Origin: an uncultured Chloroflexia bacterium | GTDB lineage: Bacteria > Chloroflexota > Chloroflexia > QHBQ01 > JADMIH01 | Assembly: GCA_963837315.1 (NCBI GenBank) | Contig: CAWINE010000013.1 | Span: 75,780-139,779, forward strand | Direction of reading: 5' to 3' | DNA length: 64,000 bases | Shown here: in pieces, positions 3,491-63,141 of the stretch | Layout: every line of letters begins with the position of its first letter | How positions within the stretch are numbered: the first letter of the stretch is position 1 | The notes under the pieces: generated by a model | Told to the model about the DNA's origin: nothing | Databases searched by the model: none | Seen by the model: only the letters and a program-made list of their open reading frames with translations | Position numbers and translations under genes: made by a program

Positions 3491-3740
3491 TTTTCACCGC
3501 CAAGACGCCAAGGTCCGCCAAGGTCGCCAAGATTATTATAGTTTTAACCACGAAGGTCACGAAGGTCACGAAGGTCACGAAGGTTTTTATTGTTTTGAAT
3601 TACAGAGATCACAGAGTTTATTAATGGTTCAACCCAAAAGCCTTGGCGAACCTTTGCGTTCTTGGCGTCTTGGCGGTTCCGTTTTACGTTTTACGTCTTA
3701 CGTTTTACGTTTCGTCCGTCGTCCTTCGTCCGTCGTCCCC
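3491..3740. repeat. composite nested-palindrome repeat element (copy A)
   Basis: Left arm caccgccaagacgccaaggtccgccaaggtcgccaaga (3495-3532) pairs with right arm ccttggcg...cttggcgtcttggcggt (3641-3677). The core has (CACGAAGGT)x4 at 3549-3584 and CACAGAG units. These are followed by an (ACGTTTT)n block at 3681-3712 and a GACGAAG-type block at 3713-3738. Confidence 0.85.
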
Positions 3741-4475
3741 GTAGAGCGCCCTCAGCACCCCGGGCAGCTCGCCTATTCGGGTGATTGTGGCATCCGGGGT
3801 GATGGTCAGGTCGTCGAGGTCGGGGGAACGGTTGGGGACCTTCTTCCAGATACCTTTCATGCCCACGTTTTGTGCGCCTTTGACGTCGTAGCGTAGGAAA
3901 TCGCCCACAAAGGCCACCTCTCGGGGCGGGAGAGCCAGGCAGTCTAGGGCGACCTGGAATATCTGCGGCGCGGGCTTCTCCCAGCCGACCTCGCATGAGT
4001 AGAAGCGGCAGGGAAGGAGATCGATGATGCCCAGGCGCACAAGATCGGGGTCGTGGGCGGCGGCGGGCCAGGATGTGTTCGACACCAGGCCCAGCTTCAG
4101 CCCCCAGTCGCGCAAGGTCTCGAGCGCGGGACGCACGTCGGGCTCTATATAAACGTTGCCGGTGACACGCCCGTACCAGGGCAGCAGACATTCTTCAGGC
4201 CGAAGGTCCGCGATACCAAGCCGGTCGAACATAGGCTGCAGAAGGTCGAGCAGCGGTCGGCCACGCATCGTTTCGCGGGCTTCGGTCCAGCGGGCTTGTG
4301 TGCCGGTTTCCATGGTTTCGATGAACTCATCGAGCGGCGGGAGATGAGCACCGTAACCTCGCTCGGTGATATAGGCGTAAAGGCCGCGGCTCAAATCACG
4401 ATTCAGGTAGCCCCAATCCTCGTTGCGGTACTCCTGCAGCGTGCTGCCCAGGTCGAATAAAACGCCCTTTAGCAT
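3705..4475 (-). CDS. HAD-superfamily hydrolase (subfamily IA-like)
   Basis: 256-aa ORF with an N-terminal DxG motif context (MLKGVLFDLGSTL) and a C-terminal VGDFLRYDVKGAQNVGM. The last ~11 codons (DDGRRTTDET) are encoded by the repeat block at 3705-3740. Overlaps the upstream hydrolase gene by 7 nt. Confidence 0.7.
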   Translation of the reverse strand: MLKGVLFDLGSTLQEYRNEDWGYLNRDLSRGLYAYITERGYGAHLPPLDEFIETMETGTQARWTEARETMRGRPLLDLLQPMFDRLGIADLRPEECLLPWYGRVTGNVYIEPDVRPALETLRDWGLKLGLVSNTSWPAAAHDPDLVRLGIIDLLPCRFYSCEVGWEKPAPQIFQVALDCLALPPREVAFVGDFLRYDVKGAQNVGMKGIWKKVPNRSPDLDDLTITPDATITRIGELPGVLRALYGDDGRRTTDET

Positions 4476-11671: not shown

Positions 11672-12039
11672 GTTGTCAGTTGTCAGTTGTCAGTTGTCAG
11701 TAGACGAACGACCGTTTCTTTCCACCGCCAAGACGCCAAGGGACGCCAAGGGACGCCAAGATTTCTACGGTTTGAACCACCAAGACACCAAGATCACGAA
11801 GGTTTTATTCGTTTAATCACGAAGGTCACGAAGAGCACGAAGATCACGAAGGTTTTTATTGTGTTGAATCACAGGGAGCACAGGGCACTCAGAGATCATA
11901 GAGGATTTTGATGGTCATATACAATAATAACCTTGGCGGATCTTGGCGCCTTGGCGGTTACATTTTACGTTCACTGCCCACTGCCCACTGCCCACTGCCC
12001 ACCCGTCTACTGACAACTGACAACTGACAACTGACAACT
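11672..12039. repeat. composite nested-palindrome repeat element (copy B, most complete)
   Basis: Outer arms are (TTGTCAG)4+TAGACG (11672-11707) and CGTCTA+(CTGACAA)4 (12004-12038). Inner arms are caccgccaagacgccaagggacgccaagggacgccaaga (11723-11761) and ccttggcggatcttggcgccttggcggt (11931-11958). The core has CACCAAGA, CACGAAG and CACAGGG/CAGAG blocks separated by ggttttat..tt(g/t)aatca spacers, plus (CACTGCC)4 at 11972-12004. Confidence 0.9.
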
Positions 12040-21504: not shown

Positions 21505-22953
21505 ATGGCGGAACTACTCTTCCTGGATAAGAAGCCGGTTGTCCGGCAGCAAGACGACGGCAATCCGCGGGTGGCTTTCGTGACGCTGGGGTGCAAGGTG
21601 AACCAGAGCGATACGCAGAAGGCTATCGCGGATTTCCGCGCGGCGGGCTTCCGCATCGTGCCGCCTGGCGCACCTGCCGACGTATATATCGTCAATACAT
21701 GCTCGGTCACGCACGTGGCAGATCGCAAGAGCCGGCAGTGGCTCCGCCGAGGGGCGCGTGCTAATCCTGATGCGCTGGTGGTCGCCACCGGCTGCTACGC
21801 CGAATCGGGCCGCGACACCCTCCAGGAGATGGACGAGGTAGGGCTGGTAATCGGCTATCAAGAGAAGGACGACCTGCTCAAGCTGGTACTTGAACGAATG
21901 CGGAATGCGGAATGCGGATTGCGGAATGTTGACGACCGACCACCGGCAGTCGATGACCTAGGTGAACCATTCCGCAATCCGCAATCCGCATTCCGCATTC
22001 CGAGCGACGAGGATACGGACTTCCGGCAGCGCACGCGGGCGATGGTGAAGATCGAGGATGGGTGCAACGACTTCTGCACTTTCTGCATCATCCCGTTCAC
22101 ACGAGGGATGCCGCGCTCGACGCCTACCAATCGGGCTGTCGAAATGGTGAACGAAAGGCTTTCGGAGGGCTTCAAAGAGATCGTGCTCACGGGTGTGCAT
22201 ATGGGCAAGTATGGGCAGGACCACGCGCAGCGCAAGCGCGCCGCCGGTGACCCCACCGAAGCGCCCGATCTTCCCGGCGTGGTGCGCGCTATCCTCGACC
22301 GGACAGATGTGCCGCGCCTGCGTATCACGTCGGTCGAGCCGACCGATGCGGTCATGATGCTGCCTCTCCTCACCGATCCAGCCTACATGGGCAGGCTAGC
22401 TCCGCACCTTCATTTGCCATTGCAAAGCGGCTGCGATGCCACTCTGGCGCGTATGAAGCGCGATTACGACGCAGCGGAGTTCGCGGATGTCGTGAGGCAG
22501 TGTCGCGCAGCAGTGCCGGGCATCGCCATCACCACTGACCTCATAACGGGCTTCCCAGGCGAAACGGACGAGGAGTGGGCGCAAACCGTCAGCTTCGCCA
22601 GGAGCATGGAGTTCGCCAGGATCCACGTCTTCCCATACTCACAGCGACCCAACACTCCCGCCGCCACTATGCAAGGCCAGGTCCACCCCGACGTGCGCCA
22701 CGCCCGCACTCTGCAAATGATGGAGATCAGCCAGGGAGCCGAAGCGGCCTACGCCGTGCAGCAGTTGGGTCGCACACTGCCTATCCTCTGGGAAAACCAG
22801 GCGGGCGGAATATGGAGCGGCCTCACGGATAACTACCTGCGCGTCCATACAAAGTCGCAGCGCGACCTGATGAACGAAATCACCCCTGCTGCTGTTACGT
22901 CATACGATGCGCTTGGGCTGTGGGCCGAGCCATTGGACAAGGCTAGTTGCTAG
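21505..22953 (+). CDS. mtaB: tRNA methylthiotransferase MtaB (radical SAM MTTase) carrying an in-frame repeat insertion
   Basis: 482-aa ORF. The N-terminal MTTase domain is VAFVTLGCKVNQSDTQ...NTCSVT, the radical SAM motif is IEDGCNDFCTFCIIP, and a C-terminal TRAM-like region is present. The linker contains the repeat-encoded RMRNAECGLRN...FRNPQSAFRIP. Confidence 0.85.
   Translation: MAELLFLDKKPVVRQQDDGNPRVAFVTLGCKVNQSDTQKAIADFRAAGFRIVPPGAPADVYIVNTCSVTHVADRKSRQWLRRGARANPDALVVATGCYAESGRDTLQEMDEVGLVIGYQEKDDLLKLVLERMRNAECGLRNVDDRPPAVDDLGEPFRNPQSAFRIPSDEDTDFRQRTRAMVKIEDGCNDFCTFCIIPFTRGMPRSTPTNRAVEMVNERLSEGFKEIVLTGVHMGKYGQDHAQRKRAAGDPTEAPDLPGVVRAILDRTDVPRLRITSVEPTDAVMMLPLLTDPAYMGRLAPHLHLPLQSGCDATLARMKRDYDAAEFADVVRQCRAAVPGIAITTDLITGFPGETDEEWAQTVSFARSMEFARIHVFPYSQRPNTPAATMQGQVHPDVRHARTLQMMEISQGAEAAYAVQQLGRTLPILWENQAGGIWSGLTDNYLRVHTKSQRDLMNEITPAAVTSYDALGLWAEPLDKASC
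21896..22002. repeat. GCGGAWT-type hairpin element inside mtaB
   Basis: Left arm gaatgcggaatgcggaatgcggattgcggaatg (21896-21928) and right arm cattccgcaatccgcaatccgcattccgcattccg (21968-22002) are separated by a 39-nt loop. The arms are near-perfect reverse complements. Confidence 0.9.
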
Positions 22954-40129: not shown

Positions 40130-40432
40130 GAGTTGTCAGTTGTCAGTTGTCGGTTGTCAGTAGACGGATAACCGACGACAGACGACCATTTTATTTCAAC
40201 GCCAAGACGCCAAGACGCCAAGGATTTTACGGTTTGAACCACAAAGACACAAAGATCACGAAGGTTTCTATGGGTTTGAATCACGAAGAGCACGAAGGAC
40301 ACGAAGATCACTAAGGTTTTTATGGGTTTGAATCAGAGAGTGCACAGAGTATACAGAGATCACTTAATTTATCATGGTTTACGGTTTACGTTTTTGCGCT
40401 TCACTGCCCATCGTCTACCGACAACTGACAAC
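40130..40432. repeat. composite nested-palindrome repeat element (copy D)
   Basis: It starts 2 nt after the purC stop. Outer arms are gagttgtcagttgtcagttgtcggttgtcagtagacgg (40130-40167) and cgtctaccgacaactgacaac (40411-40431). The inner left arm caacgccaagacgccaagacgccaagg lies at 40197-40223, and the inner right arm is missing. Confidence 0.9.
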
Positions 40433-46695: not shown

Positions 46696-46803
46696 GAATG
46701 CGGAATGTGGAATTCGGAATGCGGAATATCGATTATTGTTTACTGCTTGTCACGTTTTACATGCGTCGTTATTCCGCATTCCAAATTCCGAATTCATCAT
46801 TCC
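46696..46803. repeat. GCGGAAT-type hairpin element
   Basis: The left arm gaatgcggaatgtggaattcggaatgcggaat (46696-46727) is identical over 32 nt to 59550-59581. The right arm is tattccgcattccaaattccgaattcatcattcc (46770-46803), and it overlaps the vWA stop codon. Confidence 0.9.
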
Positions 46804-50454: not shown

Positions 50455-50482
50455 ATAGCCATAAACCTCGTCAGGCCCGTCT

Positions 50483-50579
50483 GAATGCGGAATACGGAAT
50501 GTGGAATGCGGAATACATAGGTTGTCGGTTGTGGGTCGCCCAGCGGCATTCCGCATTCCACATTCCACATTCCACATTC
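50483..50579. repeat. GCGGAAT/GTGGAAT-type hairpin in the divergent promoter region
   Basis: Left arm gaatgcggaatacggaatgtggaatgcggaata (50483-50515) faces right arm cattccgcattccacattccacattccacattc (50547-50579). The loop contains ggttgtcggttgtggg. Confidence 0.9.
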
Positions 50580-50739
50580 AGTGGGGCCATAAGATAGGCT
50601 AATGATAGCACAAGGGGTAGGGAGGCGCAAACGTCTTTCGATAGGTAATACGTACTAATCAACCCACAAGATTTATATGATCTTAATACCTCTTCATCAT
50701 CAGGCTCGGTTATAATAGGGCAAGCAAAGGGAAACTCCC

Positions 50740-57041: not shown

Positions 57042-59551
57042 ATGAGCGCAGCCAACCTCGACGTGGGTGATAGAGAGCCTGAATTGGGCGAAAGCCTTTC
57101 GGAATCAGCACCCCGCCAACAGACCCTAAAACAACCGACGACCGGTCCTGAGCCTGCGAAGGATACCTCGCTAAAGATGCAGCGACCGGCAACCAAAGGC
57201 GCCGCAAATGGCGTCCTCGACGGTCAGAACGGCGCGCGCCCGGCGTCTAACGGACACAAGCCAAAAGCACGCAAAGGCATCGAGATAGAAACGGTCGGCC
57301 AGAGTCCCAGGCCGAAGACTGTCACCCTCGACACGCCTGATAAAGTACGTCCGCAGGCTACAACCCCGACACTGATTTCGAAGGCATCCGCAAATCCTAC
57401 GCCTTCGCTGAGCTTGCCCACGATGGCCAGATGCGCGGCACCGGCGAGCCGTACATCACCCACCCCTTGCAAGTGGCCTATATCCTGGCCGAGATGCACC
57501 TCGACTCTGAGACCATCGAGGCCGCTCTCCTGCACGACACCATCGAGGATACCGCCGCCACCAACGACGACATCACCAAGCTGTTCGGCCCCACCATCGC
57601 GCACCTTGTGGAAGGTGTTACCAAGCTCGGCACGGTCAGCAAGCTGCGCCGCCAGAGCGAAATCGCTGCCGAAAAAGAGCGTGAGCGCGAGAAGAGCCGC
57701 ACCGACACCCACCAGATCCAGGCCGAGAACCTCCGCAAGATGTTCCTCGCCATGTTCGATGACCCGCGCGTGGTGCTCATCAAGCTGGCCGACCGCCTGC
57801 ACAACATGCGCACTCTCCATGGCCTCCCTCCCGAAAAGCAGCAGCGCATAGCCACCCAGACCCTCGAAATCTACGCGCCCCTCGCCAACCGCCTCGGTAT
57901 GTGGCAGATGAAGGGCGAGCTTGAAGACCTGTCCTTCCGCTACCTCGACCCCGAGAAGTTTCGCGAGCTTTCCGACCTCCTCAAGGAGACCGAGACCGCC
58001 CGAGACCGCTATCTTGCCCGCGTCATTACCAACCTCACCGGCGAGATGGAAAGCGCAGGCATCGAAGTCACCATCAAGGGTCGCGTCAAGCACGTATTCT
58101 CCCTCTGGCAGAAGATGCAGCGCAAGAACCGCCCTATCGAGCATATTTACGACCTGCTGGCGGTGCGTATCATCGTCGATTCGGTCAAGGATTGTTACGC
58201 GGCCCTGGGCGTGATCCACTCGCTCTGGCCCCCCATCCCCGGCGAGTTCGACGATTATATAGCGCGGCCCAAAGAGTCGATGTACCAGTCGCTGCACACC
58301 GCCGTGTGGGCGCTCGATAACAAGCCGCTCGAAATCCAGATTCGCACCCATGAGATGCACGAAATCGCCGAGTACGGCATCGCGGCCCACTGGCGCTACA
58401 AGGAGCAGCGTGGCGGCAAGCGGGACTGGCGCTACGAGCAGAAAATCGCCTGGCTGCGCCGCCTGATGAGCTGGCGCGACGAGGTGGAGACCGCCCAGGA
58501 CTTTGTCGAATCGCTCAAAAGCGACCTCTTCCAGGAGCACATTTACGTCTTCACGCCACAGGGCGACATCGTGGAGCTGCCCAAGGGAGCCACGCCCATC
58601 GATTTCGCCTACCGCATCCACACCGACCTGGGCCACCAGGTGGGTGGAGCGAAGATGAACGAAAAGCTGGTGACGCTCGATACGCCTCTGGAAAACGGCG
58701 CTGTAGTGCGTATTATGAAGGACAAGAACCGGGTCGGCCCATCGCGCGACTGGCTGCAGTCTGACCGCTTCATCAAGACCGGCAACGCCCGCCAGAAGGT
58801 GCGCCAGTGGTTCAGCCGCCAGCGCCGCGACGAGAAGATCGTCCAGGGCCGCGCTATCCTCGACCAGACGCTCAAGCACCTGGGCCTAAGCAACGTGGCG
58901 CAGGTCGACATCCTCGAATACTTCCCGCGCTATAAAGAGCTGGACGATTTCCTTGAGGCTATCGGCAATACCGACATCAGCGCGGCCCAGATCACGAGCA
59001 AGGTGGGCGAGCACCGCCAGGAGGAGCTTCTACCCGAAGCCGAAAGCACCGGCGTTACCATCCCGACCAACCTTTCAAACGTGCCGATGGTGCAGCCCAC
59101 CATGCAGGTGAGCGACCTGGGAGGCTTCCTCACGCAGCTTGCGCGCTGCTGCAAGCCCATGCCCGGCGACGAAGTGATCGGCTATACCACCAAAGGGCGC
59201 GGTATCACCGTCCATCGCTCGGATTGCTCCAACCTGTCGCAGGTGCGCGACGTTGGCCGCCTCGTACGCGTCAACTGGGGCGCGAAAGGGATGGCCAGAT
59301 ATCCCGCAGGCGTGCGCATCGAAGCTCTCGACCGCGCCGGATTGCTTCGCGACGTCACCACCATGCTCGCTGACGAGAAAGTGAACATCCTCAGCGTCCA
59401 CACCCACAAGAAACCCGCCTCCGCCACCACCACCCTCATCATGGCCCTCGAAGTCTCCGGTGTAGAACAGCTCTACCAGATGATGGACCGCCTACAGTCC
59501 GTGCATGGGGTGTTCGAAGTGCAAAGGGACACAGGTGGGGCGATTGAATGA
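57042..59551 (+). CDS. relA: bifunctional (p)ppGpp synthetase/hydrolase (RelA/SpoT homolog), apparent frameshift near 57349-57356
   Basis: ORF 57431..59551 has the HD domain (HPLQVAYILAEMHLDSETIEAALLHDTIEDT), the synthetase domain (YIARPKESMYQSLHT), a TGS domain (IYVFTPQGDIVELPKGATPIDFAY) and an ACT domain. The conserved N-terminal helix (GYNPDTDFEGIRKSYAFAELAHDGQ) is open upstream in the same frame but has no start codon. ORF 57006..57851 supplies an N-terminal extension in another frame. Confidence 0.85.
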
Positions 59552-60048
59552 ATGCGGAATGTGGAATTCGGAATGCGGAATGTTAGTCGCGCTTGATTAA
59601 CCTTCAGTAAATCAGTACTGTAAACAGTCCTGGCAATATTCCGCATTCAGGAGCGCTTATTCTGGCGGACAGGGATAACGAAAGCCTTCGCCTTGCGGTG
59701 CTGAAATTGGCAGACAGTTTACCCAGAGAACGTAGCGCTGACGTCATTGGTAAGCAATGCTAAGATGCGCGGCATCAGTTGGCGCGAATTACCGGAGTGC
59801 CTGCCGAGCAAAGTCAACAGCAGATTTCATGCGCAGATGCGATTGTCGGAAGAGGAGCCGACGAAGCTTATCCTCAGATGGAGTTACCGGTTGAAAGCAA
59901 TTTGGTAGCTCAAGGAAACTCACTGGCTTGATGAGACAAGCCAATGAGATAGTTGACTATAGTTGTGGCTTCAGTCAAAACAACAAGAAGTCACAAAGTC
60001 TAACGCAGTCAATAACATTCCGCATTCCGAATTCCACATTCCGCATTC
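59550..60048. mobile_element. MITE-like element: perfect 33-bp terminal inverted repeats flanking a decayed four-helix-bundle (23S rRNA IVS protein-like) gene
   Basis: The left TIR gaatgcggaatgtggaattcggaatgcggaatg (59550-59582) is the exact reverse complement of cattccgcattccgaattccacattccgcattc (60016-60048). The interior has lower GC and, across frames, reads ...LKLADSLPRERSADVIGKQ / RSKADFIAKM.. / ..ELLVESNLV / MRQANEIV.., which fits the TIGR02436-type pattern (my recollection of that family). Confidence 0.6.
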
Positions 60049-60060
60049 AAAGGAGAACGT

Positions 60061-61098
60061 ATGCCGGACCGCGAAGCCTTTCATATTGGTCCCTTCCAGA
60101 TAGGCAACCTTACCATAGACATACCGGTCCATTGGTATGGCATAGTGATTATGCTTGGGGTCGTGGTGGCCTCATATTTCGCTTACCGTGAAGCGAAGCG
60201 GCGCGGCCAGGATCCCGACCACGTTTGGCAGATGTTCCCCTGGGTGCTTATCTTCGGCATCGTGGGTGCACGCCTGGGCTTCGTCATCTCGCAGCTTGGC
60301 GACCCGCACTACCAGGACATGGCCAACTGGATTCGCATCTGGGAGGGCGGCCTCAGTATCCAGGGCGCAATCGTGGGCGGCGTGCTCGCCCTCCTCTTCT
60401 ACTCCCGCCGCTACTTGCTTTCCTTTTTCATGTGGGCCGACATCATCGTGCCGGGGCTCGCCCTCGCACAGGCTATCGGGCGCTGGGGCAACTACTTCAA
60501 CCAGGAAGCCTTCGGCTCGCGTTGCGACCTCCCCTGGTGCATCCCGATCAGTCCGGAGCGGCAGACCCAGGTCGCGGGTATCATCAACCCCGACCCCAAC
60601 GCCCGCTTCCACCCCACCTTCGCCTATGAGATGATCTGGGACCTTATCAACTTCGGCATCCTCATCTGGCTCAGCAGGCAAAAGAAATTCCGCCTGCGAG
60701 AAGGCGACCTCCTCTGGACCTACCTGATCGTCTATTCTGTCGGGCGCTTCATAATCGAACAGATAAGGATCGACAGCGCCACCGTTGCCGACCTCAAGAC
60801 GCCTGCTATAATCGCGATCCTCACTATACTGATCGCCGGGGCAGCCCTCATCTACCGCCACCGGCCCGGCAGCACGGCCCCATACTCCGACGACGTTTTG
60901 CCCGCGATTACCACCCCGGCATCTACTGTGGTCACAGGCAGTTCGCCCACGCTGGCCACAGCCACCGCCGCAGCCTCAGCAGGCACGTCAAGCCCGCCGC
61001 CCTCCCACGAATCGCGTGTCCGGCGTGTCCAGACGTTAGCCGATACTGAAGCCTCATCAGAGGGAGCGGGCAGCTCAGATACCATAGCAGAAGAATGA
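60061..61098 (+). CDS. lgt: prolipoprotein diacylglyceryl transferase with a Ser/Thr/Ala-rich C-terminal tail
   Basis: 345-aa ORF preceded by the SD aaggag. It contains IPVHWYGIVIMLGVVVASYFAYREAKRRG and GRWGNYFNQEAFG. Confidence 0.9.
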   Translation: MPDREAFHIGPFQIGNLTIDIPVHWYGIVIMLGVVVASYFAYREAKRRGQDPDHVWQMFPWVLIFGIVGARLGFVISQLGDPHYQDMANWIRIWEGGLSIQGAIVGGVLALLFYSRRYLLSFFMWADIIVPGLALAQAIGRWGNYFNQEAFGSRCDLPWCIPISPERQTQVAGIINPDPNARFHPTFAYEMIWDLINFGILIWLSRQKKFRLREGDLLWTYLIVYSVGRFIIEQIRIDSATVADLKTPAIIAILTILIAGAALIYRHRPGSTAPYSDDVLPAITTPASTVVTGSSPTLATATAAASAGTSSPPPSHESRVRRVQTLADTEASSEGAGSSDTIAEE

Positions 61099-61131: not shown

Positions 61132-63141
61132 ATGGATAGCGTAAGCGACGAAGCCCTCGTACCGGAACAAGCAGAACCAGATACAAACGAACCAACTATT
61201 GTCGTTCGAAAAGTAAGCTCACAACCTGTGGAATCCGGTGATTCCGCACTACCCGCTCTGCAACCCTCGCCTGTTAGACCCTGGGTGCCGGGCGAGCAGC
61301 CCGCCCCCGAGCCGGAAATTGAGGGCCAACCGCAAGACGAGTTCAGCCTGCCGCAGGCTCAGCCGGCCGCCGACCTCGCACCCGGTAGACTCAAAACCCG
61401 CTGGGTGCTACTCGTCTTCGGTGTCACCTTTCTCTTCTACGGGCTCTTCGTCAACCGTATCATCCTTTACAGCAGCCCGCCCACCGGCGACCAGGCGTTC
61501 TACCTCATGGTGACGATGAGCATCGTGCAGGATGGCGATTTCAACCTCGCGAACAACTACGCCAACCGCGACGAAAACAAGTTCTACTCTCTAGCTCCTC
61601 ACCCTCCCAACTTCGTAGGCATGGACGCCCCATACCCTCTTCCCCCACATAACGGCTTCACTCCGGCTCGGCCGGCCGGCGAGCAATACAATTTCCACTG
61701 GCCCGGCCTTTCCCTGCTGGTGGCTCCGGCCTGGGTGATAGGAGGCATTTTCGGCCTCTGGTGGCCTGCGACCGTGGTTTTCATGTGCATTATAGGCGCT
61801 CTGCTCGCCACCAATATCTTCCTGCTCGCCCACGAGATTAGCGGCCGAGCCTGGATTGCCCTGGTGGTGTGGGCGGCGCTCGCTTTCAGCAACCCGCTGA
61901 TGTCCTACACATACCTCATCTTCTCGGAGCTGACCTGCGGCCTGCTCATGCTGTATGCTTTCAGGCGATTGGCGCTCGGCTGGGGCGCGAACAGCCCTTT
62001 CAGGCTCCTGCTGGTCGGCCTCAGCATCGCCTACATCCCCTGGGTGGCCTGGCGTTGCGCACCCATCTCCTTCGGCCTGGGCATATACGCCGCCGTGCAG
62101 TGGTGGCGGTGGTACCGAATGCGGAATGCGGAATTCGGAATTCGGAATAAAGACGAATCAAGGAGCATTCCGAATTCCACATTCCACATTCCGCATTCCC
62201 TCTGGCTGGTGATCCCTATAGTCGTGTCACTTGCGCTGCTGACCTGGTACAACTTCTTCCTTTTCGGCAAGTTCTTTCCCAATAACCAGACACCCGAGCG
62301 CGGTGACCTGCCGATTTTCTTCTGGCCCTGGGAGAGCCGCGAGAATCTAACGCATTTCTTGACTTCAGGATACGGCCTGCTCTTCGACCGGGCGTTCGGC
62401 CTGCTGGCTTTCGCCCCGGTCTACCTGCTCGCAGTTGTGGGCATCATTGCTATGTTCCAGTCGCGCAGGCGCAGCGACCGGCGGCTGCTTTTCTGGATGG
62501 GATTCATCGTTCTCCCCTACCTGGGCATCATCATGTCGTTTTATTACTGGAGCGGCATATGGAACCCGCCGGCACGCTTCCAAACTACCCTTGTGCCTCT
62601 CCTTGCAGCGCCGCTGGCCATGGCCCTGGTCGCCTGCAATAACTGGTTTTACCGTGCAATTTTCGGCATCTTATCGGCATGGGGCTTTCTCATGATGAGT
62701 ATCATGGTCGCCGACCCGCGCCGCCTGTGGCCCGCAAATGCGCCTTACGAGTGGATGTCGGGTGCAGTCACCTACCTCAGCGGCGGGAACTTCCCTGTAC
62801 GGATCAACCTGTGGAACCTCCTACCCGCAGTGGACCCAGTCGACGAGAGGACCTTACCCTCCAATACTGCCCTTGTGACCATCGTGTCATTGGCCATAGT
62901 TGTGCTGTGCTATTTCCTGATGACTCGCTGGCGAGAGGCTTCGCGCAATTGCGGAATGCGGAATGCGGATTGCGGATTGAAGACGATCGGGCAACATTCC
63001 CCATTCGCCATTCCCCGTCCCGCATTCGGGCAATCCGCAATCCGCAATCCGCAATCCGCAATCCGCATTCGTCTGGTCCGTAGCGTTTGTGCTGGTGGGA
63101 GCAAGCTGGTATTTCGCCAACTTCGACTATATCCAGCATAG
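61132..63141 (+). CDS. polytopic membrane protein, GT-C fold (ArnT/PMT, GT39-like) glycosyltransferase candidate, with two repeat insertions
   Basis: 669-aa ORF with a first-loop motif SSPPTGDQAFYLMVTMSIVQDGDFNL and at least 10 hydrophobic helices. Repeat-encoded peptides are RMRNAEFGIRNKDESRSIPNSTFHIPHS and NCGMRNADCGLK...SAIRNPQSAIRIR. The 3' end runs through the repeat at 62947-63070, so the true stop is uncertain. Confidence 0.5.
   Translation: MDSVSDEALVPEQAEPDTNEPTIVVRKVSSQPVESGDSALPALQPSPVRPWVPGEQPAPEPEIEGQPQDEFSLPQAQPAADLAPGRLKTRWVLLVFGVTFLFYGLFVNRIILYSSPPTGDQAFYLMVTMSIVQDGDFNLANNYANRDENKFYSLAPHPPNFVGMDAPYPLPPHNGFTPARPAGEQYNFHWPGLSLLVAPAWVIGGIFGLWWPATVVFMCIIGALLATNIFLLAHEISGRAWIALVVWAALAFSNPLMSYTYLIFSELTCGLLMLYAFRRLALGWGANSPFRLLLVGLSIAYIPWVAWRCAPISFGLGIYAAVQWWRWYRMRNAEFGIRNKDESRSIPNSTFHIPHSLWLVIPIVVSLALLTWYNFFLFGKFFPNNQTPERGDLPIFFWPWESRENLTHFLTSGYGLLFDRAFGLLAFAPVYLLAVVGIIAMFQSRRRSDRRLLFWMGFIVLPYLGIIMSFYYWSGIWNPPARFQTTLVPLLAAPLAMALVACNNWFYRAIFGILSAWGFLMMSIMVADPRRLWPANAPYEWMSGAVTYLSGGNFPVRINLWNLLPAVDPVDERTLPSNTALVTIVSLAIVVLCYFLMTRWREASRNCGMRNADCGLKTIGQHSPFAIPRPAFGQSAIRNPQSAIRIRLVRSVCAGGSKLVFRQLRLYPA
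62117..62199. repeat. GCGGAAT-type hairpin inside the GT-C gene
   Basis: Left arm gaatgcggaatgcggaattcggaattcggaata (62117-62149) faces right arm cattccgaattccacattccacattccgcattcc (62166-62199). Confidence 0.9.
62947..63070. repeat. GCGGAWT-type hairpin at the GT-C / NHL gene boundary
   Basis: Left arm aattgcggaatgcggaatgcggattgcggattg (62947-62979) faces right arm cattccccattcgccattccccgtcccgcattcgggc(aatccgc)5attc (62995-63070). Confidence 0.9.

Follow-up and report, generated by a model that had tools for sequence, protein, structure and literature searches.

Between relA and lgt, in a 64,000-nt stretch of contig CAWINE010000013.1 from an uncultured Chloroflexia bacterium (hereafter the window), lies a 501-bp unit that is probably the dead copy of a decaying cassette: a gene for a four-helix-bundle (4HB) protein of the family PF05635, framed by inverted arrays of heptamers and built in the manner of the intervening sequences (IVS) of 23S rRNA. 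The PF05635/S23p family is named after the open reading frames (ORFs) in such IVS, which are inserted in helix 9, 25 or 45 of the 23S rRNA of hosts such as Leptospira, Coxiella burnetii, Brucella and Haemophilus. In the window the gene is broken and the arms are perfect; gene and arms stand together at the same position in five relatives, and across bacteria inverted heptamer arrays enclose 126 of 153 4HB loci when the two subfamilies studied here are pooled.

Results

A Broken Gene between Perfect Arms

The unit is a perfect inverted repeat: two arms of 37 nt each, 100% complementary, enclose an interior of 427 nt (Table 1), the 501 bp including both arms. The first-pass annotation of this DNA had proposed a perfect inverted repeat with 33-nt arms and a 433-nt interior; the repeat is real, and the boundaries then drawn lie inside the longer ones given here. 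Each arm contains five heptamers, GAATGCG, GAATGTG, GAATTCG, GAATGCG and GAATGTT. The left arm opens with the three bases of the relA stop codon, TGA at 59549-59551, an overlap that had been seen from the start. The distance from the end of the right arm to the lgt ATG (60061) is 11 nt, with the lgt ribosome-binding site (RBS) AAGGAG directly after the arm. The GC content had been described as lower between the arms, and it is indeed 0.445-0.52 within the unit against 0.59-0.65 in the flanking genes. Perfect arms are rare, being found at 3 of the 73 loci of the broader survey described below, and the window's perfect 37-nt pair is unusual. In addition to the two outer arms, an inner copy of the right arm sits just upstream of the RBS of the 4HB gene; it is complete in the orthologous contig L085 (2001-2024), and the alignment makes the window's version 14 nt, or exactly two heptamers, shorter.

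The state of the gene is most easily seen against its intact orthologue in L085, to which the pseudogene is 87% identical in a pairwise DNA alignment (299/344). The start codon is gone, with about 9 nt missing within the first 8 codons; single-base deletions occur after seven positions (59697, 59757, 59830, 59839, 59855, 59865 and 59915) and single-base insertions after three (59846, 59874 and 59955), and the ancestral stop TAA is retained at 60001-60003. With at least ten single-base indels, no intact reading frame of about 115-130 codons is left, and in all about 14 indel events and many non-conservative substitutions fall within the 345 bp of the pseudogene. By contrast, the frame is kept throughout the alignments of lgt (1 kb) and of the gene after it (1.8 kb), and it shifts once in the 2.5 kb of relA; because the indels cluster in the pseudogene while the neighbours align nearly cleanly, the decay is real and not the product of general assembly error.

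With profile hidden Markov models (HMMs), the unedited sequence stays below the curated cut-offs. The best unedited frame scores 21.1 bits with TIGR02436 (E=2.7e-4, cut-off 24) and 16.9 bits with PF05635 (E=0.0078, cut-off 33.8), and a hand-stitched translation, whose scores are open to bias from the stitching, reaches 57.2 bits (E=1.7e-15) and 44.2 bits against the same cut-offs. Because of that bias, we turned to an alignment as an independent check: the stitched query retrieved 1236 PF05635 proteins, the best of which, P0001, is intact, 118 aa long and encoded by the L085 gene, and residues 11-118 of P0001 align onto 59680-60000 in tblastn. HMM scores, protein alignment and DNA identity thus agree with the first-pass description of the interior as a broken TIGR02436/PF05635 gene, if not with every peptide quoted for it, two of which were approximate: the sequence reads RAKSTADFM and MELPVESNLV in place of RSKADFIAKM and ELLVESNLV. 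No further 4HB-like sequence was found elsewhere in the window, and Rfam gave no family at E<0.1 and no rRNA match in 59000-60600. For the 4HB protein, PF05635 is the sole domain match, with no recognisable nuclease, recombinase or transposase domain, and the intact protein has no match in PADLOC or PHROGs. The profile of the subfamily matches PDB 2RLD, a structure with five chains, at E=1.9e-25.

The Same Unit at the Orthologous Spacers of Relatives

An intact 118-codon 4HB gene stands between relA and lgt in a Chloroflexota metagenome-assembled genome (MAG), L083 (L084 has the same sequence), and in the metagenome contigs L085, L166, L167 and L168; the five top protein matches all come from this position, and these relatives, whose DNA is only 74-88% identical, carry the same GGAATGC-type arms along with the intact gene. 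Wherever the contig reaches that far, the left arm begins at the relA stop, and in all orthologues the right arm ends just ahead of the lgt RBS. The complementarity of the arms is 97% over 34 nt in L168, 94% over 36 nt in L085, 85% over 26 nt in L167 and 82-87% over 30-33 nt in L083. Compared across the window, L085, L168 and L167, the arms show an identity of 91-100% (the window's left arm 91-100% and its right arm 94-97% identical to their counterparts), and the same comparison gives 82-88% for the last 300 nt of relA, 79-90% for the first 180 nt of lgt and 77-88% for the 4HB gene. The arms are the most conserved part of the region, which argues for constraint on the arm sequence, not for youth. 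Of the two causes suggested earlier for perfect arms, recent origin therefore fails, with the same gene and arms present in five relatives of such divergence, whereas selection on the arms is upheld by their identity in excess of the 77-90% of the neighbouring coding DNA. In this Chloroflexota lineage the cassette has been passed down vertically in the spacer between relA and lgt.

A pair of substitutions in the arms of the window were at first read as window-specific changes that restored the pairing. This reading was dropped, as the GTG is also found in L168 and L167 and the C of TAACATT also in L167, and it cannot be told which way the change went.

What lies between the left and the inner arm is variable, about 50-60 nt in the window and L085 and about 300 nt in L083. 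In L167 (363-575) and L168 (645-908) it holds an extra membrane-protein ORF of 70-87 codons with a hydrophobic stretch (…LLFGT.VGG.VL…) and no Pfam match; this ORF is absent from the window and L085.

Across Chloroflexia the synteny of relA and lgt is kept and the content of the spacer varies. A comparison of this spacer among related strains had been proposed, and it returns, next to the five relatives with an intact unit, others with an empty hairpin, with arm remnants or with nothing. There is almost no spacer in L007 and L256; L004 and L006 have unrelated hairpins, and L003 has a short gene-less hairpin of GGATTGC/GAATTTC heptamers. In L254, whose RelA C-terminus is 95% identical to that of the window, only degenerate remnants of both arms are left, and no 4HB coding remnant is detectable in the spacer. 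A second 4HB subfamily, which we call B as opposed to the window's A, occupies the spacer of L005 between arms of the GAATTAC heptamer; its gene (3603-3950) has a single frameshift near the junction of ...EEALAAE and QSRNDFIAKL..., which may reflect either another instance of decay at this spacer or a fault of the assembly. The same spacer of L255, whose coding DNA is about 75% identical to that of L005, contains an empty GAATTAC hairpin with a 14-nt loop. Filled, decaying, remnant and empty states are all seen at the relA-lgt spacer, and each subfamily has its cognate arm heptamer there, GAATGCG for A and GAATTAC for B. With the further case of L266, where positions 220-400 hold a hairpin of GACGACG/GACGACA type, a 23-nt direct repeat and CACTTAT repeats, the spacer is a hot spot for repeat turnover. 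No relative shows the 4HB interior without the arms; this and the HMM similarity of the interior were the two points on which the first-pass annotation had staked its reading, and both came out in its favour. A degenerate DNA pattern derived from the 4HB gene found no match in the metagenome_contigs collection, outside which the L085 contig evidently lies.

Heptamer Arrays and 4HB Genes across Bacteria

For subfamily A, 80 loci were fetched from a collection of species-representative genomes, 77 of them with both flanks, in phyla including Chloroflexota, Acidobacteriota, Planctomycetota, Verrucomicrobiota, Cyanobacteriota, Nitrospirota, Bacteroidota and others; the encoded proteins are 54-72% identical to the query. 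Each locus received the score of its best inverted repeat, taken without gaps, between the 200-nt flanks on the two sides of the gene, with a threshold of at least 14. The threshold was reached by 64 of the 77 loci (median score 20) against 1 of 289 controls displaced within the same loci and keeping the same geometry, by 62 of 76 loci of subfamily B against 0 of 311 displaced controls, and by 3 of 108 neighbouring ORFs of at least 100 codons. The idea that the heptamer hairpins are linked to a parent element, raised on the window alone, is strongly supported by these counts. The gene-plus-arms unit is present in more than 15 bacterial phyla.

Measured over 73 loci, the arms run to a median of 32 nt, with a median complementarity of 87.5%. 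Period 7 is essentially their sole periodicity (two flanks have period 6), and the arrays have a median size of 4.3-4.7 units. The heptamers share a G-A-n-T core, the near-100% frequencies of which are partly by construction, as the register was chosen to maximise the core. Cyanobacteria carry both subfamilies: arms of GATTTT[AG] or GATTGCA accompany subfamily A in 9/9 loci, and arms of GAGTTAG or GAGTTTT accompany subfamily B in 14/14 loci with arrays. Because the cyanobacterial heptamer type follows the 4HB subfamily, the arms go with the gene and not simply with the host. Exact copies of the window's 34-nt arm turn up just twice in the genome collection, each time in Gemmatimonadota: the first lies directly against a subfamily-A 4HB gene with a complementary array behind it, and the second belongs to a gene-less hairpin at a distance of 2.1 kb from a 4HB gene. 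At 65 of 80 loci the gene upstream points the same way as the 4HB gene, as does the gene downstream at 44 of 70, values close to the usual bacterial background from which we draw no conclusion.

Several loci of the survey deserve mention in their own right. The longest perfect arms among the 153 loci are the 57-nt GGATTGC arms of L087, a Chloroflexota MAG (556-612 / 1165-1221). In six Acidobacteriota loci (L110, L115, L122, L139, L147 and L149) the left array abuts the 3' end of tRNA-Sec, and the gene downstream of these cassettes is the same in at least five of the six genomes. Among the viral contigs of IMG/VR, only five (L249-L253) encode 4HB subfamily A, two of them, L249 and L250, with GGATTGC arms; the cassette is therefore rare in that collection. 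Many 4HB proteins in the databases (P0006, P0007, P0099 and P0102) carry N- or C-terminal extensions that are translated heptamers, for example ...NPKSEFPNPKSL; loci such as L103, L116 and L139 are also concerned, and at several loci the gene runs on into the right array before reaching its stop codon. The annotated ends of 4HB genes are therefore often unreliable.

Gene-less Hairpins in the Window

The heptamers of the arms are not confined to the cassette. With at most three mismatches, the 34-nt arm core occurs four times in the window and never in 100 shuffles, and a heptamer-dimer pattern occurs 45 times where 0.42 would be expected. The copy at 46696-46729 matches 33 of the 34 core bases, the first 32 being identical, in agreement with the identity of the left arm's first 32 nt that had been reported at 46696; it belongs to one of the five gene-less hairpins listed in Table 1. 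No obvious similarity was found between the loops of the window's gene-less hairpins and the ends of the cassette interior, and there is therefore no direct evidence that these hairpins arose by internal deletion.

Two of the hairpins, both of GGAATGC type, are read in frame. The one at 21896-22000 is translated as ...RMRNAECGLRNV...FRNPQSAFRIPS... within ORF 21505-22953, the N-terminus of which reads, by sequence alone and without a homology search, like a methylthiotransferase; the one at 62117-62198 gives ...RNAEFGIRNK...IPNSTFHIPHS... within ORF 61132-63141, where it occupies a stretch poorly conserved relative to the L083 orthologue. The window has a second perfect inverted repeat, at 11672-11706 / 12004-12038, with arms of 35 nt and the heptamer GTTGTCA. 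Between these arms there are nested arrays of CCAAGAC, CACGAAG, CACAGAG and CACTGCC and no gene; a diverged copy of this nested module lies at 40132-40432, and its heptamers fall outside the G-A-n-T core of the 4HB arms.

Neighbouring Genes and Feature Coordinates

Both neighbours of the unit are assigned through their L083 orthologues, RelA with the Pfam domains HD, RelA_SpoT, TGS and ACT and Lgt with the Pfam domain LGT. The single frame change of relA lies at about 57347-57359: residues 1-96 of L083 RelA align with 57042-57347, and residues 100-829 align in a different frame with 57359-59551. Possible causes are a genuine frameshift, an error in sequencing and an alternative start. The closest relatives found in a search with Lgt are Chloroflexia MAGs in which this protein is 51-62% identical. 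On the plus strand of the relA-lgt spacer we found no terminator-like or promoter-like site; the sequence AAGGAGAACGTATG comes after the right arm, and the GC-rich stem with a run of T that marks an intrinsic terminator was not found.

Table 1. Features of the relA-lgt region and gene-less heptamer hairpins of the window
Feature	Coordinates	Strand	Description or basis
relA/spoT-type (p)ppGpp synthetase, upstream neighbour	57431..59551	+	ORF list; protein 90% identical to L083 RelA
Left arm	59549..59585	+	Five heptamers, (T)GAATGCG GAATGTG GAATTCG GAATGCG GAATGTTA
Spacer between left arm and inner arm remnant, 49 nt	59586..59634	+	Alignment with L085; length varies among orthologues
Inner arm remnant, AATATTCCGCATTCA	59635..59649	+	Complementary to left arm; direct repeat of the right-arm end
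Former RBS of 4HB gene, AGGAG	59649..59653	+	Aligns with AGGAGG upstream of the L085 GTG start codon
4HB pseudogene (PF05635 / TIGR02436), ancestrally 118 codons	59660..60003	+	Alignment to intact L085 gene, tblastn with P0001, HMM scores
Right arm	60013..60049	+	Exact reverse complement of left arm
lgt RBS AAGGAG (60050-60055) and lgt gene (ATG 60061)	60050..61098	+	ORF list; protein 71% identical to L083 Lgt
Gene-less hairpin	21896..22000	.	33-nt arms, 97% complementary, 39-nt loop; in frame inside ORF 21505-22953
Gene-less hairpin	46696..46802	.	Left arm shares first 32 nt with left arm of the cassette; 84% complementary, 33-nt loop
Gene-less hairpin	50474..50588	.	41-nt arms, 88% complementary, 33-nt loop
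Gene-less hairpin	62117..62198	.	32-nt arms, 91% complementary, 18-nt loop; in frame inside membrane-protein ORF 61132-63141
Gene-less hairpin, related GGAATGC/GGATTGC heptamers	62948..63067	.	32-nt arms, 94% complementary

Discussion

The unit is probably a dead copy of a cassette of simple plan: a 5' array of four to five heptamers with the G-A-n-T core, a PF05635 gene of about 118 codons with its own RBS, and a complementary array behind it. As relA, the cassette and lgt lie on one strand and no terminator-like site separates them, the three are probably co-transcribed, and in the transcript the arms would pair as a 37-bp stem that sets the 3' end of relA beside the RBS of lgt. The predicted RNA fold has this 37-bp closing stem in both the minimum-free-energy and the centroid structure, at -205 kcal/mol compared with -153 +/- 6.6 for shuffled sequences (z = -8). 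By analogy with the IVS of 23S rRNA, RNase III might then cut the stem and excise the interior, a step that we regard as quite possible, if somewhat short of probable. We are equally reserved, leaning slightly to the sceptical side, about a second predicted step, the binding of the intact 4HB protein to its own heptamer arrays; it is suggested because the conservation of the arms exceeds the needs of pairing and the heptamer type follows the subfamily, and because the family is pentameric and includes Avd, a protein that binds nucleic acids. Avd, itself a pentamer, comes from diversity-generating retroelements (DGRs) and is placed in the 4HB superfamily (PMC10053308). Gene-less hairpins may be what is left after the decay of the gene, and the states found between relA and lgt could be arranged as a series leading from the intact gene (L085) through the pseudogene (window) and arm remnants (L254) to an empty hairpin (L255, L003).

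Some of our observations weigh against this account of a stem acting in RNA. The mismatches in the arms of the 73 loci show no asymmetry, 67 being compatible with G.U pairing in the sense RNA and 71 with pairing in the antisense (A.C), and without a G.U excess nothing points specifically to selection on the sense RNA over selection on the DNA; the test is a weak one, as most mismatches are swaps between heptamer variants and not point changes. The loss of the gene in L254, with only degenerate arm remnants kept, and the near absence of a spacer in L007 and L256 imply that the long stem is not needed for the expression of relA and lgt. Furthermore, arm conservation beyond the needs of pairing suits a factor that binds a specific sequence at least as well as it suits a stem for RNase III, and perhaps better.

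The last point leads to the strongest competitor, a mobile or self-maintaining element acting at the level of DNA, like the RAYT genes with their repetitive extragenic palindromes (REPs) and REPINs. The arms would be terminal inverted repeats and the window a dead master copy, the 4HB pentamer would be a trans-acting factor recognising the arrays, and the gene-less hairpins would be non-autonomous derivatives. Much of the evidence is compatible with such an element: the repeat that flanks the gene is dispersed in the genome, with at least five gene-less hairpins in 64 kb, some of which are inserted into genes without breaking the frame; orthologous spacers differ in whether they carry the cassette; one and the same spacer has been filled in different lineages by two 4HB subfamilies with distinct heptamers, and in a single host clade the heptamer type goes with the protein subfamily; the conservation of the arms extends to their sequence and not only to their pairing; and a protein 55-72% identical across many phyla suggests horizontal spread. 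On the other hand, the protein has no nuclease, recombinase or transposase domain and no PADLOC or PHROGs match, and the window has no identical second copy. The sequence outside the arms reads ...GATTGAA on one side and AAGGAG... on the other, and no target-site duplication is evident beyond the arms of the window copy, where the flanks were inspected but not systematically examined. The orthologues have kept to a single site while their DNA diverged by 12-26%, and movement, of which none was observed, must therefore be rare, if it happens at all. We therefore find an element of this kind possible but rather doubtful.

Far less can be said for a chance association, in which scattered heptamer hairpins belong to the host and an unrelated small gene happened to be framed by two arrays. 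The window is indeed full of heptamer hairpins of several families, hairpin loops do host nested insertions (as at 11672-12038), and empty hairpins are found at the same spacer in relatives. Nevertheless, the association is largely refuted by the controls, where framing is seen at 3/108 neighbouring ORFs and 1/600 displaced positions compared with 126/153 4HB loci. No other gene in the 64-kb window is enclosed by such arms, the heptamer type differs between 4HB subfamilies in the same host group, and the two exact matches to the arm in Gemmatimonadota are both near 4HB genes, the first directly adjoining and the second 2.1 kb away, all of which make coincidence very improbable. No more credible is the proposal that the frame breaks are sequencing or assembly errors in a gene that is truly intact, or that the perfect arms are themselves an assembly artefact: the frame change of relA near 57350 and the single 4HB frameshift of L005 admit some indel error, yet the 345 bp of the pseudogene have lost the start codon and taken up some 14 indels and many non-conservative substitutions next to nearly clean neighbours, and the arrangement of the arms is reproduced in five independent assemblies. 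That the unit is the remnant of a DGR, with the 4HB gene as a decayed Avd accessory gene, is most improbable, for although the Avd of the Bordetella phage DGR falls in the same superfamily as the PF05635 proteins (PMC10053308), relA and lgt flank the unit in the window and at every orthologous locus, neither a reverse transcriptase nor a pair of template and variable repeats was found nearby in the loci examined, and the repeats are heptamer arrays.

Returning to the heptamer-armed cassette, we can extend it into a broader proposal, put forward tentatively and with the expectation that it is more apt to fail than to hold: PF05635 4HB proteins would be sequence-specific partners of heptamer arrays, the dispersed hairpins of Chloroflexota, of cyanobacteria with their STRR-like repeats, of Xanthomonas, Bacteroidota and others would be gene-less derivatives or targets of these cassettes, and the IVS of 23S rRNA would be the subset that landed in rRNA. 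Each 4HB subfamily may recognise its own G-A-n-T heptamer, with one pentamer per array of about five units. The locus and the survey connect three old puzzles that had been handled apart, the ORF-bearing IVS of 23S rRNA, the thousands of stand-alone 4HB/S23p proteins and the over-represented tandem heptamers of many bacterial genomes; if the proposal is true, a very large orphan protein family would have a function, and the bacterial heptamer repeats and the IVS an origin. The subfamily-specific heptamer framing across phyla makes the function of the 4HB family testable. For annotation, the observations matter already, given the false 4HB termini that arise from translated heptamers and the hairpins that stand in frame inside real genes.

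Comparison with Known Systems

The closest parallel is the S23p-type IVS. That of Coxiella burnetii is 428-444 nt long and has a 28-bp terminal stem cut by RNase III; its loop contains a decaying S23p ORF, preceded directly by tandem heptamers whose number varies among strains, and its authors, who hold the RNA part to matter more than the protein, recall an older idea of former mobility (PMC4990558). The window's unit resembles it in size (501 bp), in its terminal inverted repeats and long stem (37 bp here), in the sense-oriented PF05635/S23p ORF inside the loop, here a pseudogene and intact in five orthologous loci, in heptamers that adjoin the ORF and shift in copy number by whole units, and in the decay of the ORF with the stem kept. 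It differs in lying between the protein-coding genes relA and lgt, not in rRNA, and in having arms that are themselves heptamer arrays; and excision by RNase III, demonstrated for the rRNA IVS, is something that we infer for the window's unit. Two conserved motifs of the 23S rRNA helix 43-45 region were found in 0 of 253 fetched loci, so that most such cassettes probably lie outside rRNA.

RAYTs are Y1 (HUH) transposases with catalytic motifs, and REPs are palindromes of 20-40 nt, not tandem heptamer arrays. The likeness to RAYT/REPIN systems consists in a single gene framed by a short inverted repeat that is also dispersed as gene-less, mostly intergenic hairpins; the difference is a 4HB protein that matches PF05635 only, with no known catalytic domain and no match to a Y1/HUH transposase. 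The comparison draws in part on a REP overview (PMC3733652). The unit likewise has the inverted repeats of a miniature inverted-repeat transposable element or a DNA transposon, and it fails to qualify as either, its sole gene being a 4HB gene without a catalytic domain. With Avd the proteins share the 4HB superfamily and the pentameric form (PMC10053308; 2RLD has five chains), and they are set apart from the Avd of DGRs by an unrelated genomic context without reverse transcriptase or template and variable repeats.

Tandem heptamers have been described before. They are intergenic and often stand in convergent, inverted pairs. Xanthomonas has GGGAATC tandem heptamers, with 70-75 convergent pairs per genome (PMC4692102), and others are known from Beggiatoaceae (TAACTGA) and from cyanobacteria as short tandemly repeated repetitive (STRR) sequences (PMC4679880). 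Put in the register GAATCGG, the Xanthomonas heptamer agrees with the G-A-n-T core seen around 4HB genes. The Xanthomonas and Beggiatoaceae studies treat the heptamers as G-quadruplex or translational elements, and text searches within the two papers turned up no mention of S23p or 4HB genes (PMC4692102, PMC4679880). Our literature search found no paper linking PF05635 genes to heptamer inverted repeats outside rRNA; what seems new here, and apparently undescribed in the literature searched, is the link between heptamer arrays and a cognate 4HB gene. Set beside these systems, the locus is a cassette of IVS type that lies in an mRNA spacer, its gene partway through decay and its arms still perfect.

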